From a virus (lineage: Duplodnaviria; Caudoviricetes): 51,227 bases of DNA. Positions 22,111 through 51,227 of the stretch are shown here, one piece after another. Location: positions 1 to 51,227 of IMG/VR virus record IMGVR_UViG_3300032247_001523, one strand, 5' to 3'. The position numbers were made by a program, and so were the translations under genes. The notes beneath the pieces were generated by a model. The model was given only the letters and a program-made list of their open reading frames with translations, had not been told where the DNA came from and did no database searches. Each line of letters opens with the position of its first letter. Within the stretch, counting starts at the first letter, position 1.

Positions 22111-25100
22111 CTACACATTGGTATAAGACGACCCTTCCACATTTGTGTTGGGCTGGATGATTAGATTTGCAGTATAAACAGTTACGTTGCTTGATAAAGT
22201 TAATTCTTGAATGACTTCGGTTTCATTGTAGTATTCGTTGGCCAATCTTGCTGTGCCAATGGCGCCAGTACCAACACCGTTGATGAATATCGAAGGCGTT
22301 GATGTATATCCTGTGCCTGGCTTGACTACCACAAATTCCTTGATGGTACGTGTAGAAAGATCAACAATGGCTTGCACATTGGCTCCAGTGCCACCGCCAC
22401 CAATCACAGTGACAGCTGGTTCTAGGTAGTAACCAATACCGGCATTGCTGACAATTACATCTCTGATACCGTGCTTGTGATTCAAATTCCATTCACGATA
22501 TGCAAGATTATTAGACAATGTTGTACTGTCGTAGGTCTTGGTACCATCTGGGCTACGATAAGTCTTGGATCTTGCATCATATGCGGCCGGCAAATCAAAG
22601 TCGGTCACATCACCGCCAAACACGTCTGTGCCTTGATAGTCCAGCAGATACTCGCGCAAGCTGGTACGATAAGGTTTAACTTCGTCAATGTAGTTTACAT
22701 AGTAAGTTTGGTTGTCTTTGATGTAGTTGGGGAACTGCTCCAATTTACGCAACTGGTGTAACACACTGACAAAACTGGTTTTAACTGCCCAGTCCAGGCT
22801 TGGCTGTTCAGTCAACACATAGTTGATCATATAGAATACTAAAGAATTAAATTTGTCCTTTAGTGTATCTATAAAGATATACTGCTCCAGTGTGTCCAAA
22901 ATTATACGCATCTCTGTGCTATTGGCAGCACCGTCGGCATACAAGTTTGAATTAAACTGTATAGTACCGTTCTCAATGCCCACCAAGGTCTTGGCAGTGG
23001 CGCTGGTATAGCGATACACTTCAAACTGACCACGGCCGTTGTTTAGCACTTTGGCCACTTTGCCGGCAGCAAACTTGTACTTTTGTAAGTCTTTGGTTGT
23101 TGCAACCACATAGTCAGGTTTGACTGTTGGGTCGTATGTGCTGTCATACCAGTCAATTGTTGACCAGTAGAATGGAGTATAGTAACTTTGTTTGCGTGTC
23201 AAAGCAAATGTGGAACCATTGTACAAATAAATGGTCCATAAATTACTTTGGCTTTCGTCGTTGATGACCAAGAAATATTGTCCTGCACGGCCAGTCAAAT
23301 CCACATAGCCGAGTTCAAGTTTGGTATTAACTGTATAATCAAATCCTGTTGTAGGAACAGCTTCTGCAGAATATAGATTCTGAATATTAAATTCCTCAAC
23401 AATAGGAACTGTAACAAATACATTGTTACAGAACTCTACAAAGTTCTTAACTGCGGCCAGTCGGTTGACGAACACTGTTTGACGTGGACGCACATCAATG
23501 CCAATGCGAGATTGAATTGGTAGAGCAGGATCCGGCACAGGATTATTTTGTGCATCTATTCCAGCTAGACTGTCTTTGATCTTGTTCACAATGCGTGTGG
23601 GTACCAGACTGTTGCTGTTGCCTTCTTGCACCAATTGGTATTCGCTGTGAATAATATTTGTATTACGTATGGTATCATAGTGCATGTTCAACACTATGCT
23701 GTTACCTGTCAGCATATCAGTCACACCATGCAGGCTCACAGTATCCGATCTAAGAACTGCCGCATATGGAATTGCCTGTGCTTGCGGATTCAGGATCATG
23801 TCTTGTATTGTACTGACAGTGTTCAAGCGATTGGTTTTATCTGTGTCCACCGTGGTGCGGTCTTTGACCCAAAAGTAGTAGCGACTGCGTACCAACTTGG
23901 TACTTGTGTCAATGTAGCTTTCTACATTAAATGCTTCGTCGTTGGGATACTTAGGAACACCGTCCCCAGTGTACTCACTTGGCGGAACTGCACTTTCAAC
24001 CCATTCACATACTTCAACAATACTGCCTGGGAATGGGCGGCCCCAATGGGTTGATCTATAAGTCAAATTGCCTTGCTCGTAGTCGATATAACGAACGCTG
24101 TCAAGATTCCACCAAGTTTTGCCAACTTGGGTGGCACCCCAGTGATAGTCTGTGCTGACACTGACGTCCATGGTGTAATTATCTATGCCGGTTGCTGAAT
24201 TGTATACCGCTGGATCATAGTTGGTTTTATAATCGATGTCTTGTTCGGCTGCGCCTAGAATCTTGCCTTTGGCAGGATCAATGAAATCCAAATTGGTTAA
24301 AATAACCTGTGTGTTGGCATTGTAGACAAACATGCGTGTGACTGAATCAATGTCAACTTTTGGTTCTTGGTGTCTGATCACATCCCAGCCAACATTGCCT
24401 GAGAAGTTGTTGTATGTGTAGTATGTGCCAGCATTTCTAATTGGCACAGCACGACCATTGGCATCTTGAACCAGTTGTCCGTTGCCGTAAAATTGATAAT
24501 TGCCACTGTCGCCAGGAGCCCCAACCAACAATGTTTGTGCATTCATGGACATGCCAGCACCAAATTCGTCATTTGTACTCAGGCTGGTATTTTCTAGTTG
24601 CTGTACCAATACATATTGATCAAGTTCTGTTCCGGTCAAAGCACTGCCTACCAGTCCATACACATAGGCAACACCAGACCCGGCAATGGCACCATAGAAC
24701 GTGGTACTACCATTTTCAAACAGTGTGGTGATATTGTCAAATGTTGTGCCATTATAAGTGGTACCACCTGATGCACCAATTACCAGTGTACGACCATCGG
24801 CACTGCTGATAACTTGACTACCAAATTGGTCAACTTGATCCCGCGCCGGATGCTTTAGTGTTTGTCCCAGGCTGTAAACAGACAGTCCAAGGTCTCTCAA
24901 TGCTGTGCCCGGACCAGGTGTGATTACCAATCGGCTGTAAGATGTGCTCACGTTGCTGGTAATTGTTAATACATTGGCAAAATCAATTGCGGCACTAACA
25001 CCACTGATATTGGCAGAATTGATATCGGCTACCACATTGGCCACTGTGGTGCCAGTGAATGTAATTTTACGTCCGTTGATTCGGACACTGTCTCCCACTG

Positions 25101-28100
25101 TGACTGTGGGGCTGTAAACTGTGCTGGTAATTGTGCCGTATGCGGCACCTTGGTTTGTGTAACGATATACAACACCGCTGTGATATCCCGGCTCACTGTA
25201 TCCTGGACTGCTGATGTAAACATCGGCATCGTTGCCCGAAATGTGTGCGGCAATACCAAACATGGCACCACTGGTCGGTGTATCTGCTGTTATCTTTTCT
25301 AGCAATTGAAATTTGCTAGATTCAATGTTGATGATACTGCCATATGCTGGCACGTTGTTAACTGTGAACACAATGGCATTTGCGTTTGGTGCAGTCCAAT
25401 TGGTGTTGATGATGCCATTGACTGTGACTGGAGTTTCAGTTGACACCGGATACTGTGTTATATAAACATTACCATTGGCTCGGAATGTTTCAATACTGCG
25501 GTCATACACATAAACTGCACCTGCACCTGCAACACCATTGATTTGTTCGTATGGTGCGCTGATAATAGTTTGGCTGGCATCTGTTGTGGTTTTTATAGTC
25601 AGACCAAAGTTGGCTGTTATATTGCCCACAATGGTATTGGCCAAATTGTAGTAACCTGATGTGTTGGCCTGGTATACATATACATTGCCTGCAAACGGTG
25701 CACCAACCATTAGCCACTCACCGTCGGCGCTGGCGCTGATACTGCTACCAAATTTATCGCCGGTGGTGCTGTGTGTGATTGATTGACGCCACTGCATGGT
25801 GGTATTACCGTTATATGAATAAATGTGTACACGACCAGCTTCGGTTGAGCCGTCGCCTGGGTTGCCCACATACAACAAATTACCAGCTGTATCCAGGCTG
25901 GCACCGTACAGGGAAACACTACTGTGAGTTGCACCAAGATTGGCCACTGCTGTCAATGTATTGTGGTTGGCTGTGTTGGCCACAAATACTACGACATTGC
26001 CTCGGTTAAGATTTGGCATGCCGGCAGCGGCAAATGTTCCAGTGTTGTTAATTGCAGATACTGTGCCAAATCCTGAATAACTGGCATAGCCATTGCCCAA
26101 TTGCATACTGGGGTTAAACGGACTCAAGTTTGCAGACCAAGGTGTAGACTTGTTAAATACTGCCCACTGGCCATTTCCGGCATCGTCAACCCAAATTTTA
26201 TCGCTGTCGTGCCAACCAGTGGCTGGAGTAATGGTGTTAATATCGGTTGGCTGTGTTAATCGTACACTTTGCAAATGATATATCGGTGCTAGCCCTGTAA
26301 TCGTTTTGGCCTGTCGGATGGCTTCAAAATTCTGATAAAGAACAATCTCTACTCGGAAAGCATCAACAACATTGTATACTTGATATACTCCATCCACCCG
26401 TGGATCAAATCCTTTGATTACCAATAGATCTCCGTAACCCAGGTTGTGTGTTCGTGCCAGTGTTGCTGTACCGACGATGTCAATTGTGTAATCCAATTGT
26501 TTGATTTGGTTGCCAATATCAGTTACACGGAACACATTCCAATCACCTAGTGTGGCTTTGGCTGACCAGATTTTATATCCAGACTTCATTACATCTAGGT
26601 GTTGATTCAGTGATGCATAGTTGCCTGTGTCAAAAATTGTAGTGTCAACATCGTCTAGATAAACATACCCGGCCGAAGGAATATCATTGTTTACAACACT
26701 CTTGGCATCTCTATTTTTATAAATGTTGGGCTGGTAACCTGGACTGGTTTTGTATAACTTGTCAGGGGTAACACCAATCACTCGATCTGTGGCCACACCG
26801 TTATTGGGTAGCAATGTAAATGTCACAGGGTCGCTGTTAAATAACCCTTCGTTGAGTACAACCTCAACGTTTTTGTTGTTGTCCAGGGCACCATATTCAC
26901 CCACACGCATGGCCCACTCTTCGTACATGTTGATAGTAGAAGTAACTCCGTTAAAGCCTGCCGCCGTAAAGGCTTTGATAGCATTCAGTGTGCCTTTTTC
27001 TTTAATGAAGCCTTGATAGAATTTGACCTGTGTTTGTGTGTCAATACCAAAGTCTGTCAAATATTGACGTGGTCGGAATCCAATCAGTCCAAGACTGTAA
27101 CGATCAAAATTTCCTTCAACTTCTAGATTGTCGGGGTCGTTGAATCGTTTGAACTTTTCAGCATTGTAACTGAAGTTTGGCAATAGGCCTGTTTTGATTT
27201 CAGACGACGGAATTTGACGCCATTGACTAGGCTTGAACTCAATTGTGGCCGACAAGTCAGATGTGGCCGCATAGTACAAGTCTTTGTATATTACCAAGCT
27301 ACCCTTGGCATAATCGGTACCCGACACCCAATCAGCCACCCGAGGACTGTTGTAAATAAATCCAGGAGGATTTAAATTACCGGTCCAAGAGCCAGTCTTG
27401 CTGCCAATCAGTTTTAATCGATATTGTCTATTACCCAGCTCAGGTTTGTACACAATGTCATTGAAAACTGTTACATTGTCAAAAATCATCACATGTTCGT
27501 ATTCAACAATGTTAAACACTGCCAACGCAATGGTCTGCCCCAGATTGGCTTCAACACTGAATCTATTGTCGCTACGAACCACACTGAACTGTGTGTTCTT
27601 GATAACATTAAAGTTGATATCCAAGATACGTGTGGCGCCTGGTCTATTTTCAATAGCATCAACCACGCCAGACTTGGTGTTGACTACCAATCTGTTTAGC
27701 ACTGGGCTCAGCACTAGAATATTACCCGGTGCCCATCCTTGCTCGCTCCAGCCCAAGAATTCGCGCACACTCAATTTAAAATCTCGCTGTATTTGTAAAT
27801 CAGTGTCCATCTCGGTCATGGTAATACCACGAGCACGTAGGTGGCGCTCATAACTGATCAAGAAGTCGACCACTTGTTGTTTGTTGTTAAACTCATGACC
27901 GTACGGAACTGTGACTTTGTATTTTTGATAGTCTTTGTAGATCACTGCACGGCTGTTGCCAGATGTAATAGTATATGCCTGATTATTGGCCAGACTTGGA
28001 ATAATAGTAAAGTACGGATTGTCTACATCGTATCCGCTGACTGTGTATCCGTTTTCGCTTTTCTCAACAATCACAGCTGAATAAGTCACATTGGTAGTCG

Positions 28101-31100
28101 GGGTCGATTTGTGTAAATTGATGCTGTAGCTTTCGTTGGGCAACACAACACCTTGGTTGGTACTGGTTGGACTACTTTGTTCTGCAACCACTTCTACCAG
28201 AGTTTTGTCCGAGTATCCAGCCATTTTATATGCCAGCTGAACTTTCAGCTTGCTCAAATAGTTGTTAATTTTGGTATCAGGATCAACACCTTGACTGCGT
28301 AGATATTCTGCTACCCAATTGGTATATCCTGCAACACGAGCATTTGGTCCATTGATGGTAAAGGCCGCAGGAGTAATACGTTGTAGTGTGTCCGACAGCA
28401 CATATTGATCTAGGTCAGTGTTCTTGTAGTAACGCCCCACATTCATCAAGGTACCAAAATAAAATGCAGGATGACTCAATGCAATGGCACGTTGAACTGC
28501 ATAAGCATAATCACTACTACGGCGCCATGCTGTTTCTACAGGACCTTGATCGCCAACACCAAAACTGCCATTGGCTTGATTGCTGTTGAAGTTTTTGACC
28601 AAAAACTGCTCGGGGCTACGTAACAGTCCGTATTCGTCAACTGGCAATATCTTGCTCAAGCCCGGACGTGCAAAACGACTGTCTATGCCGGCACGATCTC
28701 CGCTGTAGATATAACCTTTCTCAAGATCAGTCCATAGTACACCGTTGCCGCCGGTGTAGGGCGCAGGGCCGTAACGATCTTGCCACCAGTCGGGTTGAAC
28801 AGTGAAGCCCAGCATTTCCCAAGGATGAGTGTGCGGTCTGTCAGTGTCAAAGAAAAATTTAAAAATGGCACGCCATGCACCAGGCAGTCTTTGACCATTT
28901 ACAGTATCAAAAAATCTCTTGTAGTTCCAGGTCCACGGATTGCCAGCTTCAAAATATGTGTTATTGGTAAAATCCACACGATTGCCACCCACCCAGCGCA
29001 AGAAACTCTTGGTCAAAAGTCTATCAAATTCTGCACGAACATAATCAGTCTTGCGGAACTTGCCTGGCAAGAAGTTGTACAAGTCAAACACGTTTTTGGC
29101 ATAATCAACTTTGATATTGTTGTAGATACGCAATTCAAATTCTAATAGAACATCGTCTCGGAAGTCACCAAACACTGGAGTAATTGATCCGTCGTGACCC
29201 TGAATTACTTCAACTGGGGTCTGATATGTGGTGTCAACAAATCTACTGGGAGTAAATTTGGGATATAGACCCAGCTTGGTCGGAGTTTCAGGTATGTAAT
29301 TACCGTCGGTATTTGAGTACTCGTTGATGATAATGGTGTCACCGGCCAACAACGGATAGGCTGAGTTGATTGTGATGCCGGCGCGAGTTGTATCAAACAC
29401 ATAATCAACGTCTTTGACCAATTGCTTGTTGTTTACATAAATCAGCACGGCTGTGTTGCTCAATGTGGTGCTTGAGAATATTGAGCTTATTTCATAATCT
29501 CTAATTTCCGCATTGATCACAGTATAGGTAATGGTATTTTTAATATCTCCGTATGGTACCATGTCTGAATAATACCAAGGAAATGTTTTATTTTTTACAG
29601 CATTGATATTTTTTAGTATGTTGTCTACTATGCCAGGAATGTTGGTCAAATCAATACTGGATAACTTGCTGGCAGTTTCTAGTATTTTGTTTTTGATCTT
29701 GCCATACTCGTGGCTGGCCAATTCCAGACCCTTGACAAAATTAACTTCAGGATCTACTAGAAATAGCTCACTGTAAATGACTGGGCTGGCATGCTGAATA
29801 ATACTGCCGCCCTGTCCTTTGACTTGTAAATCACGTAGGTTACTATCGCCGGGTACAACACCGGATACACGATTACTGTTGTTGGTCATTGTGACCAAGT
29901 GGTTACGTAATTGTCCCAGTGTCAGACTACTGAAGTTAACGTTCTCGGTATTCAGATCCAAGTTTTGCGGAATCTCATAATAGCCCAATTTGCTGACTGA
30001 GTCACTGTACACCAAGATATCAATTCTGTCACCTTTGGTCAGCACCGGACCGTCGGGGTTAGATGACGAGTAAGTTAGTATTTGTACAAATGTTTTTACA
30101 CCAACTGTTTTAATAGAGTAATACGTTGTTTGAAGGCTGTTGATATAAACACGGAAGTAAGGAATTGTACTTTCCGTGGCCGCAGTGATATCAATTTCAA
30201 AGAATACATTACGTCCATTGAATGTGTGACTGATAATTTGATTTTGGCGTGTTTTTTCTACATTTTTACGCCATACATTACGCAGGTTATATGCGGTCAG
30301 TCCGGTATTTTGACGCAATAGTTTATTGCCCAGGCCTTCAGTTTCAATGTTGTTGGTAAATTGAATATCGCCAATTTGATTAAAGTTACGATAACTCAAC
30401 GGAAATCCCAGCACCGAGTCTGCTGTGCCTGTGCCTCGGGTATAGCTAAAAATCTTGGTGCCAACAAACCCAGTGGGTGCAGTTCCGGTTTTGGTGTCAA
30501 CAACATTAAACAGTGGGTCGACCACTAGGCCATCGGCGCCCAATGTTTTTTGTTGCCCCACAACCCAACGGTACCCATCATACCAATATTGAACACCTTT
30601 GTTTGTGCCCTTGGTCACAATAATATTATTGTATGTGTTAACCGATGAATCATCAGCTGGTACCAGATTGATTTTGAATACCTGATTTCCAGTATTGGCA
30701 TCTATCAGAGAAATAACATCAACAACAAACACCTGATTGCGTACAGTTGGGTCTGTGTCGCTGGCAAAGATAATTCTTGTATCTTGTACCAGTGGCACAC
30801 CTTGCAACATGGCAGAAGTGGCATCCATTAATTCAATTGTGGATCTTGCATCAAGAACATCAAAGTCTAATATGTCCACCGGACGTTTGGCCAGGCGGCC
30901 AAAATTATGTAATTGTAAATTGGCTTCAAATTCTATAATAGGGCGGCTGGCACGTTGTGTCTGATTAAACAGTGGAATAGTATTGTTATACAATGCCGCG
31001 GCTTTGATAACATCAATGTGGAACCAACGATTGCTACGTGTCCAAGGGTTTAAATCTTGACTGGCGCGGTTAATGGTCACATAATCAGGGTTACTGTTGC

Positions 31101-32610
31101 CACGGGTTGAGTAAATTGGCTCGGGTGTAATAAACTTGTCAACTGGTATCAGTGTAATACCTGTTCCCACCCCTTCAACATAATAACTGTTGCCGGCATA
31201 AGTGCTGGGATTGGCTGTGGTGTCGAATTGAATTTTTAAACCATTGGTAAACACAACACCATTGGGGCTGGTATATTCTTGACGGCCCACAATGTCAATA
31301 TCAACATTGATCTTGGAATCAGTCACATCCAGAAGACTGATTTGTCCAACAAAACTTGAAGTGACTCCGTCTTGATAATACACAGCTGGCAAAATACTGG
31401 TCAAGTCTGGAATCTGTGTGTACAGTCCTGTGTCGTTGTTGATGTAAAAACTCAGTTCACCACGAGACGACCCGCCTTGCACATACACTTTTTGATTGGT
31501 GATGACCTGTGTTGACGGAACCAGTACAAATGTATAGTCTCCGTTACCATCTGCAACCAATTGAATTTTCCAAACATTTCTACGGATATCTCTAGGCACT
31601 ACTAGCCCGGTGCCAAACAAGCTAGAAAACAAGGTGTTGTATTGGGTCAGTGCCGATGTTGCAAACACATCCGGGGTTGTCCATTGAATATCGTCAATTG
31701 ACGAGTTGACAAATATTATTGTTTTGTTGTTTAGTTGGCTACGAACGCTGTCAATGCCGTCGTATGTGCCAATCACCTGACTGAGCAGTTGTCCTTGCAA
31801 TTGAGCATAGTCAAGATCTGTACTCAAATCTACTGTGATCAAGGGGTTGGTAGCTGTGACCATACGCACAAAAAAATCCTGTGCGTCGGGCAGTGGAACC
31901 TTGAATGTGATTTCGCCCACGTCAATACCGTTGTTGATCACACCGTAAATGTCTCGGCTGGAAGTGTTGGCGCGATTGGCTTTTAGTCCCGAAGTTCCAG
32001 GCTCAGTCTGAATCCAAAACGGATGCCCTGGTTGGTTAACAATAAATTTGTATGTGCCGCCGTGTGCCAAACGCAGAGTCGGGTTGGCACTTTGTCCTTG
32101 TCCGGTAAAGTAATAAGCGCCCGTGGTAGTATTACGTGTTACAGTATATGTTTCGCTTTTGCTGATTTGACTGCCAAACACTTCAACTTGGTCCGGGCCG
32201 TTGTCCAGCCAATAGTATTGGTTGAAATTAACAAACTTGTCAAAATCAAACAGTCCGTCAAAGCTGTAGCTTTCTCCGGTAAACATACGACTGTGATTTG
32301 TGGTATTGCCACCATAGTGCTCAATTTGTTGTAGTAGGTCGATGTAACTGGAAAAGAATTCCAAGTTGCCCTGTGCATCTTTGACCACTGCACCAGGCTC
32401 TAACTGATATTGTTGGCGACGAGCAGTAGGCTCAGGCTGATAGTTATCTGTGCTTTTGTATGTGGGGGCCACTGTGCGACCCACATAGGCGTTAATCTTG
32501 CGTAGGTCAGGCGGAGTTACCAGCTGATCAATAGTGGCATTTAAAAATTTCTGATTGGTATCAGTTCTAAATACCTGTGGTAAAAAATTAATACTTTTAA
32601 TTGCAGCCAT
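22111..32610 (-). CDS. Giant baseplate wedge/tail structural protein (3499 aa; 4210 codons if the TAG is read through)
   Basis: Directly downstream of gp6, the gp7 position in T4-like order; seven FG-GAP-like repeats; YIDEVKPYRT and NAGIGY..P.V...GGGGTGA motifs. Confidence 0.75.
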   Translation of the reverse strand: MAAIKSINFLPQVFRTDTNQKFLNATIDQLVTPPDLRKINAYVGRTVAPTYKSTDNYQPEPTARRQQYQLEPGAVVKDAQGNLEFFSSYIDLLQQIEHYGGNTTNHSRMFTGESYSFDGLFDFDKFVNFNQYYWLDNGPDQVEVFGSQISKSETYTVTRNTTTGAYYFTGQGQSANPTLRLAHGGTYKFIVNQPGHPFWIQTEPGTSGLKANRANTSSRDIYGVINNGIDVGEITFKVPLPDAQDFFVRMVTATNPLITVDLSTDLDYAQLQGQLLSQVIGTYDGIDSVRSQLNNKTIIFVNSSIDDIQWTTPDVFATSALTQYNTLFSSLFGTGLVVPRDIRRNVWKIQLVADGNGDYTFVLVPSTQVITNQKVYVQGGSSRGELSFYINNDTGLYTQIPDLTSILPAVYYQDGVTSSFVGQISLLDVTDSKINVDIDIVGRQEYTSPNGVVFTNGLKIQFDTTANPSTYAGNSYYVEGVGTGITLIPVDKFITPEPIYSTRGNSNPDYVTINRASQDLNPWTRSNRWFHIDVIKAAALYNNTIPLFNQTQRASRPIIEFEANLQLHNFGRLAKRPVDILDFDVLDARSTIELMDATSAMLQGVPLVQDTRIIFASDTDPTVRNQVFVVDVISLIDANTGNQVFKINLVPADDSSVNTYNNIIVTKGTNKGVQYWYDGYRWVVGQQKTLGADGLVVDPLFNVVDTKTGTAPTGFVGTKIFSYTRGTGTADSVLGFPLSYRNFNQIGDIQFTNNIETEGLGNKLLRQNTGLTAYNLRNVWRKNVEKTRQNQIISHTFNGRNVFFEIDITAATESTIPYFRVYINSLQTTYYSIKTVGVKTFVQILTYSSSNPDGPVLTKGDRIDILVYSDSVSKLGYYEIPQNLDLNTENVNFSSLTLGQLRNHLVTMTNNSNRVSGVVPGDSNLRDLQVKGQGGSIIQHASPVIYSELFLVDPEVNFVKGLELASHEYGKIKNKILETASKLSSIDLTNIPGIVDNILKNINAVKNKTFPWYYSDMVPYGDIKNTITYTVINAEIRDYEISSIFSSTTLSNTAVLIYVNNKQLVKDVDYVFDTTRAGITINSAYPLLAGDTIIINEYSNTDGNYIPETPTKLGLYPKFTPSRFVDTTYQTPVEVIQGHDGSITPVFGDFRDDVLLEFELRIYNNIKVDYAKNVFDLYNFLPGKFRKTDYVRAEFDRLLTKSFLRWVGGNRVDFTNNTYFEAGNPWTWNYKRFFDTVNGQRLPGAWRAIFKFFFDTDRPHTHPWEMLGFTVQPDWWQDRYGPAPYTGGNGVLWTDLEKGYIYSGDRAGIDSRFARPGLSKILPVDEYGLLRSPEQFLVKNFNSNQANGSFGVGDQGPVETAWRRSSDYAYAVQRAIALSHPAFYFGTLMNVGRYYKNTDLDQYVLSDTLQRITPAAFTINGPNARVAGYTNWVAEYLRSQGVDPDTKINNYLSKLKVQLAYKMAGYSDKTLVEVVAEQSSPTSTNQGVVLPNESYSINLHKSTPTTNVTYSAVIVEKSENGYTVSGYDVDNPYFTIIPSLANNQAYTITSGNSRAVIYKDYQKYKVTVPYGHEFNNKQQVVDFLISYERHLRARGITMTEMDTDLQIQRDFKLSVREFLGWSEQGWAPGNILVLSPVLNRLVVNTKSGVVDAIENRPGATRILDINFNVIKNTQFSVVRSDNRFSVEANLGQTIALAVFNIVEYEHVMIFDNVTVFNDIVYKPELGNRQYRLKLIGSKTGSWTGNLNPPGFIYNSPRVADWVSGTDYAKGSLVIYKDLYYAATSDLSATIEFKPSQWRQIPSSEIKTGLLPNFSYNAEKFKRFNDPDNLEVEGNFDRYSLGLIGFRPRQYLTDFGIDTQTQVKFYQGFIKEKGTLNAIKAFTAAGFNGVTSTINMYEEWAMRVGEYGALDNNKNVEVVLNEGLFNSDPVTFTLLPNNGVATDRVIGVTPDKLYKTSPGYQPNIYKNRDAKSVVNNDIPSAGYVYLDDVDTTIFDTGNYASLNQHLDVMKSGYKIWSAKATLGDWNVFRVTDIGNQIKQLDYTIDIVGTATLARTHNLGYGDLLVIKGFDPRVDGVYQVYNVVDAFRVEIVLYQNFEAIRQAKTITGLAPIYHLQSVRLTQPTDINTITPATGWHDSDKIWVDDAGNGQWAVFNKSTPWSANLSPFNPSMQLGNGYASYSGFGTVSAINNTGTFAAAGMPNLNRGNVVVFVANTANHNTLTAVANLGATHSSVSLYGASLDTAGNLLYVGNPGDGSTEAGRVHIYSYNGNTTMQWRQSITHSTTGDKFGSSISASADGEWLMVGAPFAGNVYVYQANTSGYYNLANTIVGNITANFGLTIKTTTDASQTIISAPYEQINGVAGAGAVYVYDRSIETFRANGNVYITQYPVSTETPVTVNGIINTNWTAPNANAIVFTVNNVPAYGSIINIESSKFQLLEKITADTPTSGAMFGIAAHISGNDADVYISSPGYSEPGYHSGVVYRYTNQGAAYGTITSTVYSPTVTVGDSVRINGRKITFTGTTVANVVADINSANISGVSAAIDFANVLTITSNVSTSYSRLVITPGPGTALRDLGLSVYSLGQTLKHPARDQVDQFGSQVISSADGRTLVIGASGGTTYNGTTFDNITTLFENGSTTFYGAIAGSGVAYVYGLVGSALTGTELDQYVLVQQLENTSLSTNDEFGAGMSMNAQTLLVGAPGDSGNYQFYGNGQLVQDANGRAVPIRNAGTYYTYNNFSGNVGWDVIRHQEPKVDIDSVTRMFVYNANTQVILTNLDFIDPAKGKILGAAEQDIDYKTNYDPAVYNSATGIDNYTMDVSVSTDYHWGATQVGKTWWNLDSVRYIDYEQGNLTYRSTHWGRPFPGSIVEVCEWVESAVPPSEYTGDGVPKYPNDEAFNVESYIDTSTKLVRSRYYFWVKDRTTVDTDKTNRLNTVSTIQDMILNPQAQAIPYAAVLRSDTVSLHGVTDMLTGNSIVLNMHYDTIRNTNIIHSEYQLVQEGNSNSLVPTRIVNKIKDSLAGIDAQNNPVPDPALPIQSRIGIDVRPRQTVFVNRLAAVKNFVEFCNNVFVTVPIVEEFNIQNLYSAEAVPTTGFDYTVNTKLELGYVDLTGRAGQYFLVINDESQSNLWTIYLYNGSTFALTRKQSYYTPFYWSTIDWYDSTYDPTVKPDYVVATTKDLQKYKFAAGKVAKVLNNGRGQFEVYRYTSATAKTLVGIENGTIQFNSNLYADGAANSTEMRIILDTLEQYIFIDTLKDKFNSLVFYMINYVLTEQPSLDWAVKTSFVSVLHQLRKLEQFPNYIKDNQTYYVNYIDEVKPYRTSLREYLLDYQGTDVFGGDVTDFDLPAAYDARSKTYRSPDGTKTYDSTTLSNNLAYREWNLNHKHGIRDVIVSNAGIGYYLEPAVTVIGGGGTGANVQAIVDLSTRTIKEFVVVKPGTGYTSTPSIFINGVGTGAIGTARLANEYYNETEVIQELTLSSNVTVYTANLIIQPNTNVEGSSYTNV

Positions 32611-36469: not shown

Positions 36470-39400
36470 TTATTTTGGACCAGCTTGTCCCGGAGCCCAG
36501 GCTTTCCATTGGATGTGTACAGGATCGTTGAACTCGCCGCCCCAGCGTAGTCCATAACTGGCCAAGTCAACTGTGTTCTTGATTGTGGTTGCTTGAGATC
36601 CACAGTCCAGTGCAATACCCAAATTATGACTGTCTGGTCTGTTAGGATTGCCCGGAGGCGGTTGGTTCAAACCAGCCACAGGATTTGGACTTGGCAAGTG
36701 TCCGCCTGCGGCCTTCCAACGTTCGTACAGCGCCTGCTGTTCTTCGACGCTACGCTGTGCGCTGGACACAGTGACTTTGACACCTGTTTTGGCTTTGAAG
36801 TCGCGAGCCATTTTCAAGAATGCTGCCTTGCAAGTCGGATTCAATCTGTCAAAGTGAGCACGATCGCCGCTTCCACCGGTGAATGTAAACACATCACTTG
36901 GATTGATATCTGTGGTATTGTCTGTGGCCGGTGAATTGGCAGCGGCAGTGGTGTTGGTATTGTTGCTGAATGTGCCCAGACTGTCTATGGCATAGCGACC
37001 ATGATTGAAGTATACCCATGCTTCAACGTCCAGCTCATCTCTACCTTCGCCGGTACTGCGCCATTTTTTGGCTTTGTCGGCATCTCTGAATTGATGTGCC
37101 ACCAACAGCATGCCTGCTAATGTACACACATCATCAGTGGACTTGACACCTTGGTTGGCTACCAGTTTGTCATAGTAGGCCTGGAATTCTTCGTACTGTA
37201 TCTTGTCCTGTATGTTTCTATTGCCCAAGAACGCTTCAATATTTTTAATATTGTCTTTGCCGGTCCAGCTGGCTTCTTGAGCTGCCGCAGTAGCACCATA
37301 TTGGCCTACAGCATCAGGTTTGATGTAGCCGCGAGTGCTGTCAGCCAAGTACTTGGCATCTATCTGATACTTGCCAAAACGGTTCTTGTGTACTTTTTTA
37401 TAGTCCCAGCCCGACTGCATGAAGCCCAGTTCAGCATGCAAGCACTGAGCTTGTTTTTGTGTCAACTTGGGCGAGCCCGATCCAATGCCGCCAGGTGGTA
37501 TATATGCCTCAGTACTGTTTAGTTTTTCATTGGGGCAGGTGTTGCTGATGCTCTTGCCCTTGGCTCCGTTGATTCCAGCTTCGCCTGCGTCAGCTGGTGC
37601 TGAACCTGATCTAACTGGGTTACCCGACCCATCTGTGACCACTCCGCCCGATCCATCGGTGACCACCCCTTCGCCACCCGACGTTTTGGCGGCACCAGGC
37701 AGGGTATTGCCGTATTTTTGTTTGTATTCGGTAAAGTAGCGTTGGCGTTCACTGAGTCCATTGGTACCACCGTTGACAATTCTGGTAACGGCTGTGCAAT
37801 CGTTCCAATCTACTTTGGCAGTACGAGATGCTTTGTAGTTAAAAAAGAAGAAAACCACAATCTTGGCAGCATTCTTGGGATCTTCGCCTAGAGCCGGATT
37901 GCCGATCAAGTCTAGGCCCAGGAACGAACCAGCTTTGTTGTACACATCACGGCCAGTGATTTGAATAAAACCACGTCCTTTGTATTTTAGACCGTCGCCA
38001 GGCTGTGTATTGCCTAGATCTTTACGTCCTTCATACTTCTGGAAGTAACTGTCTTGACCAAGTTCTTTTAAGTATCTAAAGTTGCCAGACTCTAGTTTAC
38101 ATTGGGCCATGCAAGCTGCCAACATGGTGGTATCTTTGATATAGCCCGAACTCATCAAGGCACTTTGAACCAATTGTTCGTTATCGCCGCCCTTGGGCTC
38201 GATACCCTGTATATTGCCAGCACTTTGAGTTGCGGGTTTACAAGCATTGTCTGATTCTTGCTGTATTGCCGGATTGTCTGATGCGGCCTTGGAACGAGAC
38301 CAAGGTTCGTGTGCTGGTTTTGTAGACACAATACTTTCGTTTGCACCAGCCACACTTTCCCACAGTGGGTCAGCATAATTGGTATCTGCATGAGATACTT
38401 TTGTTGGTTTGTAGTCGGTGGCAGTATATGCACCGCCTCCGTCCAGTGCAACTGCGCTGCCTTTGATTGTTACTTCGCCGCTGGCACCAATGCCAATGGT
38501 TTGTGCGCCAATAGTCATATTTGATGCATTTTGATCTAGTGCGCCACCGGCGTGTATCAACAGGTTATCACTGACACTGATTTTTCCTGCTTGTGATGTC
38601 AGGAAAAACCCTTTGGTTGCATCCATGTGCAGTTCTTCGTTGGCCTGTATGTTGACATTCTTGTCGGCATGTATGTTGAAATCACCGCGGGCTCGCATGT
38701 TGATGTCTTGATTGGAAAAAACATTGATATCACCGTTTTTACATAGCTCAACCCAGGCACTGCCCTTGCTGTTAATAATATACAGAATGTCTTCTGTATC
38801 ATTCATTAGTAGTGTATGACCGCCACTGCTACGTAAGCGTAGTAATCTATCAGTGCCTCGTACATCTCCGTCGTCCATGACAAATGAGTGCCCACCTCGT
38901 CGTGAGTTTACTCTATTCCAATCAGACTCTGTGCCCTTGGCCAGTTTGTCTTCGTAGTTGGGATCATCAGCTGGGTCGTTTTTTAGTGGGCGTCCCGGTG
39001 TACTGATACCAAACACATGGCTAGGTGTTTCTCGTTGACTGCTGGAAGTTACTGCACCGCGAACAGGATCTCGATCTGTGCCTTGATGGTAAAGTATTTT
39101 TGTTTGAACTGTATGTACCGGTTTGGGATTTGCATAAAAATCTGTGGAGTACGCATCTGCTTTGTCGTTTTCGTTGTATTCTGCTACCGGCAAGAATTGT
39201 GCTTTTGGATCGTTCTTGAATCCTTTTTTGACGCTTTCATCTACAGTTTTGTCATCTACCACATTTCCCGCGGCCAAGCCTGGTACCATGTAGTGACTCA
39301 GTGTGGGGTTAACGCAGGCAAACCAATAGCCACGATCTGGATCTCCGTTGACAAACGTACACAACACTTGATTGCCGATGTCTGGAGTTACCATCCACAT

Positions 39401-39688
39401 ACCATATGTGTGATTTACTTGGTCAAATTTGTTGTCTTTGGCTTTGTTGTTGTCAACATTGGTTGCACCAAAATACGGGCTGGCATAGGCCATCGATCTC
39501 CAGTTTTGTTCTTGGTCGTCGCTGTCGCCCATGTCAGGAATCCAAACACGAATACGTCCACTGCGAGTTGGGTCTTTGTTGTCTTTGACCACACCAATGA
39601 ATGTGGCTGTATCATAACGTATGCCTTCGGGAGCATCACGCTTGTACGACCTTGATATTTGATTTCCTACACGTCTATTTGTTGTCAT
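36470..39688 (-). CDS. gp5: Baseplate hub spike, gp5/VgrG-like, fused to GH19, a lysozyme-like domain and an M15 peptidase
   Basis: OB-fold DPTRSGRIRVWIP...PDIGNQVLCTFVNGD; beta-helix GHSFVMDD...GHTLLMND; GH19 ESGNFRYLKE...YKGRGFIQITGR..Y...INGG-like VNGGTNGL; GKYQI domain; M15 SAQRS...SHNLGIALD...DPVHIQ. Confidence 0.85.
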   Translation of the reverse strand: MTTNRRVGNQISRSYKRDAPEGIRYDTATFIGVVKDNKDPTRSGRIRVWIPDMGDSDDQEQNWRSMAYASPYFGATNVDNNKAKDNKFDQVNHTYGMWMVTPDIGNQVLCTFVNGDPDRGYWFACVNPTLSHYMVPGLAAGNVVDDKTVDESVKKGFKNDPKAQFLPVAEYNENDKADAYSTDFYANPKPVHTVQTKILYHQGTDRDPVRGAVTSSSQRETPSHVFGISTPGRPLKNDPADDPNYEDKLAKGTESDWNRVNSRRGGHSFVMDDGDVRGTDRLLRLRSSGGHTLLMNDTEDILYIINSKGSAWVELCKNGDINVFSNQDINMRARGDFNIHADKNVNIQANEELHMDATKGFFLTSQAGKISVSDNLLIHAGGALDQNASNMTIGAQTIGIGASGEVTIKGSAVALDGGGAYTATDYKPTKVSHADTNYADPLWESVAGANESIVSTKPAHEPWSRSKAASDNPAIQQESDNACKPATQSAGNIQGIEPKGGDNEQLVQSALMSSGYIKDTTMLAACMAQCKLESGNFRYLKELGQDSYFQKYEGRKDLGNTQPGDGLKYKGRGFIQITGRDVYNKAGSFLGLDLIGNPALGEDPKNAAKIVVFFFFNYKASRTAKVDWNDCTAVTRIVNGGTNGLSERQRYFTEYKQKYGNTLPGAAKTSGGEGVVTDGSGGVVTDGSGNPVRSGSAPADAGEAGINGAKGKSISNTCPNEKLNSTEAYIPPGGIGSGSPKLTQKQAQCLHAELGFMQSGWDYKKVHKNRFGKYQIDAKYLADSTRGYIKPDAVGQYGATAAAQEASWTGKDNIKNIEAFLGNRNIQDKIQYEEFQAYYDKLVANQGVKSTDDVCTLAGMLLVAHQFRDADKAKKWRSTGEGRDELDVEAWVYFNHGRYAIDSLGTFSNNTNTTAAANSPATDNTTDINPSDVFTFTGGSGDRAHFDRLNPTCKAAFLKMARDFKAKTGVKVTVSSAQRSVEEQQALYERWKAAGGHLPSPNPVAGLNQPPPGNPNRPDSHNLGIALDCGSQATTIKNTVDLASYGLRWGGEFNDPVHIQWKAWAPGQAGPK

Positions 39689-44111: not shown

Positions 44112-44158
44112 TTGACTTTTGCCGAAACATTATGTTAGTATAGACTAACTTGCAGGAG
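44112..44158 (+). promoter_or_regulatory. Sigma70-type promoter and RBS of gp55
   Basis: TTGACT (44112-44117), 18 nt, TGn-TAGTAT (44136-44141); AGGAG at 44154-44158. Confidence 0.6.
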
Positions 44159-44166
44159 ACAAGAAA

Positions 44167-45045
44167 ATTAAACACAATTACTTAAACAACAAGGATATCC
44201 TCAAAGAGATCCACAAGAGCAAAACCACTTACTGCACCTACATTGACCCAAAATATGCCGATTACGACATGATTGTTGCCAGTGTGTCCAAGATAAACAA
44301 GAAAAATATCCTAGACGCACGTAAAGCAAGAGCAGAACGCCTGGCCAAGTTGGCACACGAAACTGCTACTGCCGACGGAGTCAAGCGCAAACTGGACGAA
44401 TTTGAAGTAAAACTCAAAGATGTAGCAGATACAGATGTGGTTTTTCGTGTTATGACTTGGGATCATGTGCCAGTGGACGATGCCAAAACCAAAAAAGCAC
44501 GTATGGCCGCACTGGAAATTGAAGATGATGAAGATCCATTGCTGACCGAATACAACGAAGCCGACACTACCCACAACAAGTATGTCAAATGCAACTTTCC
44601 ACCGTTTCAGCATTGGGTGGTCAACGACGCAGGTGATCTGGTTTGCGTGGGCAAAAGTCACTGGAAGGGCGATTTAGAAACTGGCAACTTCAGTCGAGAT
44701 CACGGAAAAATGACCAACAAGCTGGCTCACATGTTCATGAAGCTGTGCGAACGCTATGCCACACGTAGCAATTGGCGAGGCTACACTTACAATGACGAAA
44801 TGCGAAGTCAAGCATTGTTGCAGTTGAGTCAAATTGGATTGCAGTTCGATGAGTCCAAAAGTCAAAACCCATTTGCTTATTATACCGCTGCCATTACCAA
44901 CAGTTTTACTCGTGTGCTGAACATTGAAAAGCGCAATCAAAACCTGCGAGATGACATACTAGAAGCTAACGGACTAACTCCTAGCTTTACTCGCCAAGGA
45001 TTGGGCGGCAGTTGGGGAGGCGGTGGCGGTGGCGACGACGAGTAA
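44167..45045 (+). CDS. gp55: Late-transcription sigma factor, T4 gp55-like; probable ATT start at 44167 (track start is 44269)
   Basis: RYATRSNWRGYTYNDEM...FDESKSQNPFAYYT....NSF.RVLNIEKR; the in-frame upstream extension (I)KHNYLNNKDILKEIHKSK resembles the gp55 N-terminal YVNNKEL motif; upstream of gp47/gp46 as in T4. Confidence 0.88.
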   Translation: MKHNYLNNKDILKEIHKSKTTYCTYIDPKYADYDMIVASVSKINKKNILDARKARAERLAKLAHETATADGVKRKLDEFEVKLKDVADTDVVFRVMTWDHVPVDDAKTKKARMAALEIEDDEDPLLTEYNEADTTHNKYVKCNFPPFQHWVVNDAGDLVCVGKSHWKGDLETGNFSRDHGKMTNKLAHMFMKLCERYATRSNWRGYTYNDEMRSQALLQLSQIGLQFDESKSQNPFAYYTAAITNSFTRVLNIEKRNQNLRDDILEANGLTPSFTRQGLGGSWGGGGGGDDE

Positions 45046-49538: not shown

Positions 49539-49583
49539 TCAAGAACATGCAACATAATTGTAATACAATGATAACTACACAAT

Positions 49584-50018
49584 ATGTCCTGGTACTACCA
49601 AAATTCCCTTGTGGAGCAACTGCCCGATGATTGTGTTGGATTCGTTTACATGATTACCAATGCTGTGTCAGGACGCAAATACATAGGCAAAAAACTAGCA
49701 AAATTCGCAAAAACCACATACAAGACAGTAAAACTCAAAAACGGCACCAAAAAGAAAAAAAAGATTCGCAGTAAAATCGACTCTGATTGGCAAGAATATT
49801 ATGGCTCAAACATTGAACTAAACAAAGACGTAGAAACACTTGGACGAGAAAACTTCAAACGCGAAATACTTTACTATTGTCAATCTAAATCAGAATGCAG
49901 TTACATTGAGGCCCGCGAACAATTCACACACAAAGTCTTAGAATCAGCAGATTACTACAACGGACACATACAAGTCCGTGTCCATGGCTCCCACATTAAA
50001 GACAAGTTAAACGGTTAA
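49584..50018 (+). CDS. Small stand-alone GIY-YIG endonuclease
   Basis: GFVYMITN..SGRKYIGKK...WQEYYGS...FKREIL...E...YYN; Lys-rich insert KTVKLKNGTKKKKKIRSK; ATAACTA (late-promoter variant) at 49571-49577. Confidence 0.85.
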   Translation: MSWYYQNSLVEQLPDDCVGFVYMITNAVSGRKYIGKKLAKFAKTTYKTVKLKNGTKKKKKIRSKIDSDWQEYYGSNIELNKDVETLGRENFKREILYYCQSKSECSYIEAREQFTHKVLESADYYNGHIQVRVHGSHIKDKLNG

Positions 50019-50020
50019 CG

Positions 50021-50447
50021 ACTCGCACAGGTCTAAAAACGTGTGCCTAGCGACAACTCGATAAAAAGAGGGACGGAAATCTCTGCGCCGTACAGAGTAC
50101 TTAGCAACTATCCTTGACAGGACGACGATCGCTTAAATGCCGCGATTTTGCTATTTGAATGGAATTTAAGGCTGAAAAGACGCTCTAGCGATAGAGCACG
50201 GTTAATATATGTGTTAGCGTATGTGTATTAATCCGCCGTTGTGATAAAGACGCAACTCGAGGTACCGGACAACCGCCTCTGTAATGTTGTAACGCTATGT
50301 GGCTGTGCTACTCGGATGATGCCAAACTTTGCCCTGAGCGGGCAAAGTGTGACCGATTAATCTGGATGATACTAGTTTCGCTGGTGCGTGAAGAAAGAAG
50401 AAAACAGTTGTGAGCGCAAGCGAAACAACAGATCTCGTTAGAGATCT
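50021..50447 (+). ncRNA. Candidate large structured non-coding RNA, family not recognised
   Basis: No ORF; about 11 hairpins, nested long-range helices, GCGA and GCAA tetraloops, many G-U pairs in the + orientation. Confidence 0.65.
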
Positions 50448-50665
50448 TAAATGAATGCTACCCCTGACTTCTTGGTATTCTCAAAGTTATCTGAAATGAT
50501 TTTCCCAATTATGTCTTTGTCTTGTTGCCCCAACAGCATGGCATCGTCATAAGAAATACTGCCACGCATGTACCAACACAATCTTAATACTTCTTCTCTT
50601 ATGGCTTTTGACTCTCTTTGATATGAGTCAAGTAAACTGATAATTTCGTCAGATTTCAGAGTCAA
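50447..50665 (-). CDS. Small baseplate hub assembly protein (gp51-like)
   Basis: LCWYMRGSISYDDAMLL...KDII; coupled to the gp26-like gene by a 4-nt overlap. Confidence 0.55.
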   Translation of the reverse strand: MTLKSDEIISLLDSYQRESKAIREEVLRLCWYMRGSISYDDAMLLGQQDKDIIGKIISDNFENTKKSGVAFI

Positions 50666-51227
50666 AAGCCTTGAGCGAAAAAACTTGCGTAATCAAATTC
50701 AACATTCAATTTGAATTCTTTTCCGCAATCAGTACATGCTGTGTCCACTGGTTTGATGTTGACATCGTCGGCAAACTTTCTAATTTGTTCCTGTACTTGA
50801 CGCAAGATACTGCTTTCGGCATTGGCATAAAACTCACTGATAAATTTTGAGTCTCGTACCACGGTACCATCTGCTGTGGTAATACTGTCTGTGCAACCGG
50901 TTACATTTTCGTTCTGTAACTCAATCATCTTTTTGACGTGCTGTTCATATTGAACTTTGCGTTCTTCTTCTGACAAGTCTTCGTTGGCCAACAATTGGAT
51001 CAGTTTTTCTTCTTCGAATGTCACACTGCCTGCACGACTGACTTGACGATAATCAAGAGGTTTCAGCTTGATAGTTAGCTCGCCGTGTGCTTTTACTGTT
51101 TTGCTGTAATCGGGTGCTGAAATACGATCCAACACAGATTGCAAGGGAATATCGTAATCATGCTCTGTTTTGCAATGCGGACACTCGGAACTCACGGTCA
51201 TAGCCGGACCGTAACTGGCAATACGTA
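50662..51227 (-). CDS. Baseplate hub subunit, gp26-like (5' end outside the window)
   Basis: The frame stays open to the window edge (..RIASYGPAMTVSSECPHC); two CxxC pairs; ends ASFFAQGF. Confidence 0.7.
   Translation of the reverse strand, partial: RIASYGPAMTVSSECPHCKTEHDYDIPLQSVLDRISAPDYSKTVKAHGELTIKLKPLDYRQVSRAGSVTFEEEKLIQLLANEDLSEEERKVQYEQHVKKMIELQNENVTGCTDSITTADGTVVRDSKFISEFYANAESSILRQVQEQIRKFADDVNIKPVDTACTDCGKEFKLNVEFDYASFFAQGF

Follow-up and report, generated by a model that had tools for sequence, protein, structure and literature searches.

In ColE1 plasmids, the rG tract of the transcript lies far upstream of the dC tract. The available parts of two sources describe how this rG stretch pairs with the template dC stretch to give a persistent hybrid, which primes DNA synthesis and displaces the other strand (PMC4412123, PMC11012335). 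At the phage T4 origins oriF and oriG, a persistent promoter-driven RNA–DNA hybrid is likewise reported, in the available part of one of these sources, to form in a downstream unwinding element (PMC4412123). Initiation sites of G4, RSF1010 ssiA and N4 carry DNA mini-hairpins whose RNA form is much less stable, according to the accessible sections of a further study (PMC13037366). Among structured RNAs, the motif Polynucleobacter-1 appears in the accessible part of its source as a table entry, which rates both its RNA nature and a cis-regulatory role as probable and gives Burkholderiales and fresh water as its origin (Weinberg et al. 2010, PMC2864571).

Here, we describe an element of ~440 bases in a T4-related jumbo phage that we interpret, with a probability of about 0.5, as a ColE1-like, transcription-driven R-loop primer origin. 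The likeness to ColE1 RNA II would lie in a long folded transcript, a segment of which is predicted from comparison of relatives to pair with the template. The differences are considerable: there is no sequence or Rfam similarity (no RNA I/RNA II match at E up to 10), the grip would be a freely varying 7-9-mer (GGATGAT here) rather than a G tract, its two copies lie ~50 nt apart across a hairpin, and the host is a 350-kb phage. With T4 oriF and oriG, the element shares an AT-rich tail downstream that is predicted to unwind (71% AT in the tail vs 54% in the body, 171 loci). The T4 origins use a middle promoter; for the element, both a late-like motif and sigma-70-like boxes are candidates. We know of no large folded RNA or matched repeats at the T4 origins. 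The tail also shares C-GNA-G and C-GNNA-G loops with the G4, St-1 and alpha3 origins, RSF1010 ssiA and the N4 promoters (PMC13037366, available part); unlike in these, the mini-hairpins of the element follow a large RNA-type domain, occur on both strands and belong to a double-stranded genome. Finally, the Polynucleobacter-1 model (RF01718) covers about a third of the element, without its pseudoknots, and omits its central domain, repeats and tail. The RF01718 part was already catalogued; a corrected fold, a longer extent and a striking repeat rule are described here.

Genomic setting and conserved fold

The window, a 51,227-nt stretch of a virus record (IMGVR_UViG_3300032247_001523; Caudoviricetes), is a piece of a T4-related jumbo phage, with tail and baseplate genes on the minus strand and, on the plus strand, in this order, genes for a late sigma factor (44269-45045; PHROGs), gp47, gp46, a radical SAM protein and a SegE-like GIY-YIG protein. 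The last of these genes (49584..50018) encodes a 144-aa single-domain protein (PF19835, E 6e-33) consisting of the bare catalytic domain with a basic insert, and the stretch described in the earlier note lies in the 430-base gap 3' of it. Beyond the gap lie two minus-strand neighbours, a convergent 72-aa ORF (50447-50665) and a T4 baseplate-family gene (50662-51225). The convergent junction at which the earlier note placed its structure is not a conserved arrangement, the next downstream gene being co-directional in many relatives. Relatives lie on contigs of up to 355 kb, and the element is single-copy in five of five large genomes.

Of 70 phage loci that were anchored on the element and extend at least 1.2 kb upstream of it, 68 contain the GIY-YIG gene. 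Conversely, among 80 loci retrieved via the GIY-YIG protein, the central motif lies within 1.5 kb in 70 and at 2 kb in one; of the remaining nine, six are too short, two carry another 5' type and one lacks the motif within 2 kb. We regard the gene as the usual upstream neighbour of the element and not as an obligate partner, because the element occurs without it in bacterial islands and at sites in cultured phages (see below). Genes of ~1 kb are inserted between the two in 12 of 145 loci (L011, L016, L041, L062, L070, L087, L092, L116, L142, L160, L243 and L271), where the element retains its own 5' pseudoknot strand.

A late-promoter-like ATAACTA (49571..49577, plus strand) stands 13 nt ahead of the GIY-YIG start. 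TAANTA occurs at −20 to −4 of 84/137 GIY-YIG genes, compared with 29/272 ORFs of one relative (genome G004), in which the annotated TAANTA-preceded ORFs include those for terminase, tail tube, baseplate and endolysin. A sigma-70-like match on the plus strand (TTGACT-18-TG-TAGTAT, 44112..44141), ahead of the late-sigma/gp47/gp46 run, is a possible distant source of transcript, although it is weak alone, such sites numbering 13 against 13.2 expected in shuffles.

Conservation extends from the end of the GIY-YIG gene to a terminal hairpin at 50447, so that the element spans 50011-50447 and the boundaries first proposed (50021..50310) were too short. The Rfam search suggested in the earlier note returns a known family for one part, with the remainder outside the model: 50020-50156 matches RF01718, which Rfam classes as sRNA, at 80.9 bits (gathering cut-off 37; model positions 1-141 complete). 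In phages, the repeat module and tail also occur with two further types of 5' domain, neither of which has an Rfam match; loci of type B are L011, L014, L021 and L074, and those of type C are L010, L080, L213, L217 and L275. The repeat module is estimated to be held by ~2900 viral stretches. No description of the full element or of the repeat rule was found in a literature search that covered few subscription papers, and the available text of PMC12595487 makes no mention of such an element.

Of 173 anchored loci, 143 were left after removal of near-duplicates, and 124 of type A were aligned; mutual information was calculated from these 124 sequences and pair counts from 141. An independent tool alignment comprised 31 of 55 non-redundant loci plus the window (32 sequences). 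In the latter, 78 pairs in 16 helices have 94.8% of 2426 cells paired and a covariation of 0.452 vs 0.170 in shuffles, none of 500 of which reached the score, with both-sided changes in 52 of the 78 pairs; slid controls reach 43% paired at most, a contrast that overstates the support somewhat, the structure having been drawn from overlapping sequences. The helices of the RF01718 model, numbers 3-8 of these 16, are kept by compensatory change in this alignment (94.8-100% paired). Comparison thus shows the element to be a conserved multi-pseudoknot fold of the plus strand.

The predicted 5' domain (50011..50156) comprises a pseudoknot that overlaps the end of the GIY-YIG gene (50011-14/50088-91), an H-type knot (50020-23/50030-33 with 50025-29/50042-46) and helices 50057-59/50068-70, 50079-85/50093-98, 50102-07/50148-53, 50112-13/50120-21 and 50128-32/50142-46, all by covariation. 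The central domain (50182..50298), outside the Rfam model, has a GNRA hairpin (50182-97), a G-U-rich stem (50203-12/50221-30) whose loop forms a pseudoknot (50215-20/50292-97), another pseudoknot at 50238-42/50269-73 (its pairs formed in 63, 61, 63, 62 and 58 of 63), and helices 50252-56/50286-90 and 50259-62/50276-79. The supported pseudoknots number four: 50011-14/50088-91, 50020-23/50030-33, 50215-20/50292-97 and 50238-42/50269-73. A CGG/CCG pairing that shares C50273 with the last of them is nearly invariant (409/423 cells paired), which makes covariation uninformative. Loops in the body are of RNA type, with GNRA outnumbering GNYA by 96 to 6 on the plus strand against 17 to 65 on the minus strand, and invariant unpaired motifs occur within the conserved fold.

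Every complementarity that the earlier note had listed is present where it was placed, and most also appear in the MFE fold. Homologs back CTCTG/CAGAG, TAGCAA/TTGCTA, GATCGC/GCGATT, GCTCTA/TAGAGC and GAGG/CCTC; for TCCT/AGGA they back the CC/GG core only, and the G-U-rich stem proposed at 50199-50235 holds in the register given above. The nested long-range helices fared differently: GCACAG/CTGTGC, TAGCG-ACAAC/GTTGT-CGCTA and GTTGTG/CGCAAC are jointly 67.0% paired vs 67.2% in shuffles (347/500 as high), and their strands pair elsewhere, three of them in pseudoknots. Folding energy, the check proposed there, is no better than in shuffles (−77.4 vs −76.0±4.8 kcal/mol, z −0.29, 70/200 as good), and the minus strand gives no signal either (z 0.20). 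The broader proposal of a large structured non-coding RNA on the plus strand is supported by covariation and the GNRA bias of the body loops. That of a ribozyme gained no support, as no known ribozyme or intron family among curated Rfam covariance models matched at E up to 10; RNase P and tmRNA likewise gave no match with curated covariance models or as ARAGORN genes.

Two smaller features concern the 5' domain. Positions 50111/50123 covary as T-C or C-T (37 and 25 of 63), a conserved non-canonical contact by this comparison, and 50108/50124 covary as a lone C-G/G-C pair.

Two matched repeats and an AT-rich tail

Downstream of the central domain, the plus strand carries two repeats, copy 1 at 50310..50322 (ACTC, GGATGAT at 50314-20, GC) and copy 2 at 50360..50372 (ATCT, GGATGAT at 50364-70, AC), with a hairpin TTTGCCC/GGGCAAA (50328..50346) between them; the spacing of the copies is 47-68 nt in relatives and, in a wider comparison, varies continuously from 47 to 72 nt. 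Among 320 loci examined, 272 bear the module, in 218 distinct versions. The 7-mers of the two copies are identical in 214 of these 218 phage modules though four positions vary, the search pattern having fixed the letter classes of both copies and not their identity. On a tree built from 141 sequences of the RNA body, repeats excluded, we counted at least 55 changes, each hitting both copies (24+2+9+20 in copy 1), a rate like that of stem columns (11-33 changes). Mutual information between the copies is 1.0-1.12 bits, against 0.22-0.55 for the next best partner. As far as comparison can show, then, the copies must match, whatever their sequence.

The exceptions are directional. All four mismatches in the 218 modules are G in copy 1 and A in copy 2. 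At position +7 (copy 1/copy 2), GA was found 166 times, GG 32 times and AG never, a bias that is largely one inherited difference; at +8, TC (26) exceeds CT (3), with at most 11 vs 2 origins. Copy 1 is pairable at +7 with the complement of copy 2 in 93% of modules (15/218 are not pairable), compared with 17% in the opposite direction. By this comparison, mismatches mostly follow the G·T/U·G wobble that copy 1 would form against the opposite strand of copy 2.

Other partners for the repeats were sought. No third complementary site is consistent within 1.5 kb, mutual information reveals no alignment columns complementary to the repeats, and no GIY-YIG residue tracks the fast-switching repeat letters (normalised mutual information at most 0.24); at the level of clades, a G/C repeat letter and a GIY-YIG residue reach 0.73. 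The frequent co-directionality of the gene downstream makes a conserved antisense transcript unlikely, and the simplest candidate for the partner is then the template DNA strand. Copy 1 is therefore predicted to act as RNA and to base-pair with the strand opposite copy 2, and copy 2 to act as DNA, through its minus strand.

The AT-rich tail (50373..50447), predicted to be unwound DNA, holds DNA-type mini-hairpins, namely a tandem-GA hairpin (GAGC-GCAA-GCGA, 50412-23) and the terminal hairpin with a C-GTTA-G loop (50430-36/50441-47). GNA triloops are found in this tail on the plus strand of 134/201 loci and on the minus strand of 84/201, and its tetraloops have no GNRA preference (79 vs 71). 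A single-stranded replication-origin structure had been named in the earlier note as the main alternative to an RNA; this is probably half right, in that the 3' tail, beyond the stretch then described, resembles single-stranded DNA, and the interpretation we favour combines the RNA and the origin proposals.

Copies in bacterial islands and look-alikes in cultured phages

RF01718 scores above its cut-off in 17 of 151 Polynucleobacter genomes, which carry the whole element. The GIY-YIG gene is absent by tblastn from 20/21 Polynucleobacter loci, the exception (L422) having the phage layout. The island repeats are identical in 12/17 cases, in five variants (e.g. AGCGAAA, ATCAAAA and GGAGAAA), differ as G/A in two and are otherwise mismatched in three; the direction of mismatch recurs at +7 (GA 6, AG 0) and +8 (TC 6, CT 0), with counter-examples to the wobble in L435 (A/T) and in L438 and L442 (two mismatches each). 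CTAAATA or ATAAATA lies 340-395 bases upstream of all 18 Polynucleobacter copies scored. For the phage group in question, the accessible part of PMC5259590 predicts ATAAATA to be the late promoter. The copies lie between a DUF6641 gene and, in many cases, a gene for a 188-aa tyrosine recombinase; genes for an AAA ATPase and an integrase are found nearby, in some cases along with a tRNA. Among the island proteins scanned, no Pfam-recognised Rep, primase, helicase or relaxase was found, blastn of an island copy against plasmids gave no match, and DUF6641 has no similarity to the GIY-YIG protein.

A related form occurs in islands of Rhodobacteraceae (3 of 401 genomes sampled), with covariance-model E values of 1e-7 to 4e-5 that are partly circular, the loci having been found by their repeat pattern; nine chance or repeat-array matches among 31 genome hits were set aside by eye. 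Seven of nine of these loci have identical copies, L371 (A/G) and L393 (C/T) oppose the wobble direction, and the loci lack an adjoining GIY-YIG gene. We consider the DUF6641 islands candidate satellites of T4-related jumbo phages. The island family (L423-L443 in Polynucleobacter; L357-L393 and L398-L403 in Rhodobacteraceae) mostly carries the element behind a CTAAATA/ATAAATA motif, also encodes an unknown 260-aa protein, sits near tRNA-Phe, -Met or -Cys and reaches three copies per genome.

At the same genomic site, beside endonuclease VII, 121Q, CBB and other cultured jumbo phages of enterobacteria have a conserved, gene-free and unannotated element of ~550 bases (L405:13400-14080, L407:14100-14800, L408-L415); 61 records cover at least 80% of it, and phages that grow on laboratory E. 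coli are among its carriers. It has the same motif order, a covarying GTTRC/GYAAC pair and 6-mer repeats identical in 10/10 cases, in three variants, and by pattern an extended −10 sigma-70-like box in 5/10; homology by covariance model is not significant (best E 0.81), and blastn of the element against cultured phages gave no match. In cultured relatives, the syntenic element adjoins endonuclease VII or a RusA-like resolvase, and the GIY-YIG gene is absent at this site in four cultured phages. In the 378-kb record of CBB, whose terminal repeats are 22 kb long, the look-alike stands at ~174.5 kb and so well away from either end. Searches of RsoM2USA, XacN1, Atu_ph07, SCTP-2, PA5oct and Phosso with the covariance model and RF01718 gave nothing significant. 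At the corresponding site, phages Phosso (L406:16319-17340) and PA5oct (L404:13700-15100) have gaps that are free of genes or carry few annotations; the Phosso gap contains CTTCGCTATTC twice and is followed by an RNase HI gene, and the four ncRNAs reported for PA5oct in the accessible part of PMC7318152 do not include the syntenic gap at ~76 kb.

A possible R-loop replication origin and its rivals

In the mechanism that we envisage, RNA polymerase would pass copy 2, and the hairpin between the copies would place copy 1, now part of the nascent RNA, next to the opened template. A 7-9-bp RNA–DNA helix of copy 1 with the template at copy 2 could then hold the bubble open, allowing a persistent R-loop to spread into the tail. 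The mini-hairpins that this AT-rich stretch can form on either DNA strand would resist re-annealing and might act as loading or priming sites. Lastly, the end of the RNA would prime one-directional replication, and islands with the element behind a late-promoter-like motif would be replicated during infection; this last step is the weakest. From the repeat comparison, we consider the RNA–DNA hybrid at copy 2 likely, and priming from it a weaker proposition than the hybrid itself. An RNase H domain (PF00075) was found in none of five phage records, which counts against this mechanism, as do the counter-examples to the wobble direction; the host enzyme could serve.

It is possible, at decidedly less than even odds, that this is the common origin of the T4-related jumbo-phage clade, from uncultured lake phages to E. 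coli phage 121Q, and that the islands captured a late-promoter-controlled origin that fires only on infection. If so, a 7-9-base self-guide of free sequence within a knotted RNA would lock that RNA onto its own template DNA. What had been catalogued as an orphan RNA motif makes up one third of a larger element, whose repeat rule is sharp and open to test: two same-sense repeats act like a helix, each with the opposite strand of the other. An origin would explain how replication starts in this jumbo-phage clade, none of the papers retrieved for which contains the phrase 'replication origin'. It would also carry the RNA-primer principle of ColE1 over to phages of 350 kb, in a form whose grip sequence can change, and would account for replication of helper-dependent islands that have no Rep gene.

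All of the repeat evidence would suit any R-loop, including one that controls transcription by pausing, termination or antitermination, or that marks a recombination hotspot serving the neighbouring gp46/gp47 and junction-cutting enzymes, with no priming of a fork. Such a role would fit the place of the element at the end of the late-sigma/gp47/gp46 run and, in cultured relatives, beside a gene for endonuclease VII or for a RusA-like resolvase; we nevertheless find it unlikely, as tail mini-hairpins on both strands, and stand-alone island copies near no recognised Rep, primase, helicase or relaxase, are more easily explained by an origin. The late-type promoter motifs, on the other hand, count against an origin in that a late function would account for them just as well as a first origin would. 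A late transcript could instead open the DNA for a terminase or nuclease, as a packaging or concatemer-cutting signal that islands copy in order to be packaged. The motif ahead of 84/137 upstream genes and 18/18 Polynucleobacter copies, and its match to the late promoter predicted for the group (PMC5259590, accessible part), speak for this reading, as does a jumbo phage that packages an island ~1000-fold above the chromosome, according to the available part of PMC12772148; the position of the CBB look-alike, far from the terminal repeats, and the sigma-70-like box in half of the ten cultured look-alikes speak against it. We hold it to be somewhat more doubtful than a regulatory or recombinational R-loop.

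The remaining explanations we hold to be improbable. A nascent minus strand might jump from copy 2 to copy 1, skipping the hairpin, or a tyrosine recombinase might swap 7-bp cores. Such a skip would use pairing of copy 1 with the copy 2 complement and so fits the wobble direction, a 188-aa tyrosine recombinase flanks island copies, and identical overlaps of 6-8 bp are typical of these enzymes; yet the spacing is continuous, the cores of the window lack flanking inverted arms, recombination would give both G·T and A·C heteroduplexes and thus no directional bias, and reverse transcriptase (PF00078) is found in 0/4 near-complete genomes. No RNA run was among the sequencing runs listed as carrying the element, and DNA contigs of four runs contain no joint between the copies among the matches listed, an uninformative result. 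Slightly less probable again is a role as RNA partner or guide of the GIY-YIG nuclease, which copy 1 would direct to nick copy 2. In TnpB systems, a nuclease gene is overlapped by its RNA, and the element resembles OMEGA and HEARO in its layout, the nuclease gene leading directly into a pseudoknotted RNA whose start overlaps the end of the gene; the gene's frequency at phage loci (68/70) and its bare catalytic domain with a basic insert would suit this arrangement. The nuclease fold is a different one, however, linkage is not obligate (the gene is missing from 20/21 Polynucleobacter loci, the Rhodobacteraceae loci and four cultured-phage sites, and is separated by ~1-kb inserts in 12/145), there is no variable external guide, and no residue tracks the fast-switching letters. 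Least probable, in our view, is a trans-acting RNA or ribozyme in which a dimeric protein or a second RNA binds the repeats: the complex conserved fold, its invariant unpaired motifs and the Rfam sRNA type of the 5' part would agree with it, but it belongs to no known ribozyme family, the DNA-type tail would go unexplained, and a fixed ligand would neither accept GGATGAT, ACATGAA, ATCAAAA and GGAGAAA alike nor favour exact complementarity to copy 2.

A repeat-adding template of the DRT2 or telomerase type was rejected: PF00078 is found in 0/5 records and 0/4 near-complete genomes, where divergent enzymes could be missed, and re-annealing of an upstream-repeat copy downstream would rely on the direction in which +7 can pair in 17% of modules, against 93% in the reverse direction.

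The GC-skew check proposed for an origin shows no switch at the locus, the skew following the coding strand. In two near-complete genomes, the skew is one-signed in 31/35 and 33/36 windows, with the element on the G-rich strand; together with the single copy, this fits one-directional replication, without locating the origin.

As to individual genes of the window, many phage records annotate the GIY-YIG family (PHROG 447; 49584-50018) as 'NAD synthetase', apparently an error that has spread from record to record. Positions 22111-32610 encode a 3499-aa protein with FG-GAP repeats, and 36470-39688 a 1072-aa baseplate-hub protein with chitinase-like and VanY peptidase-like domains.
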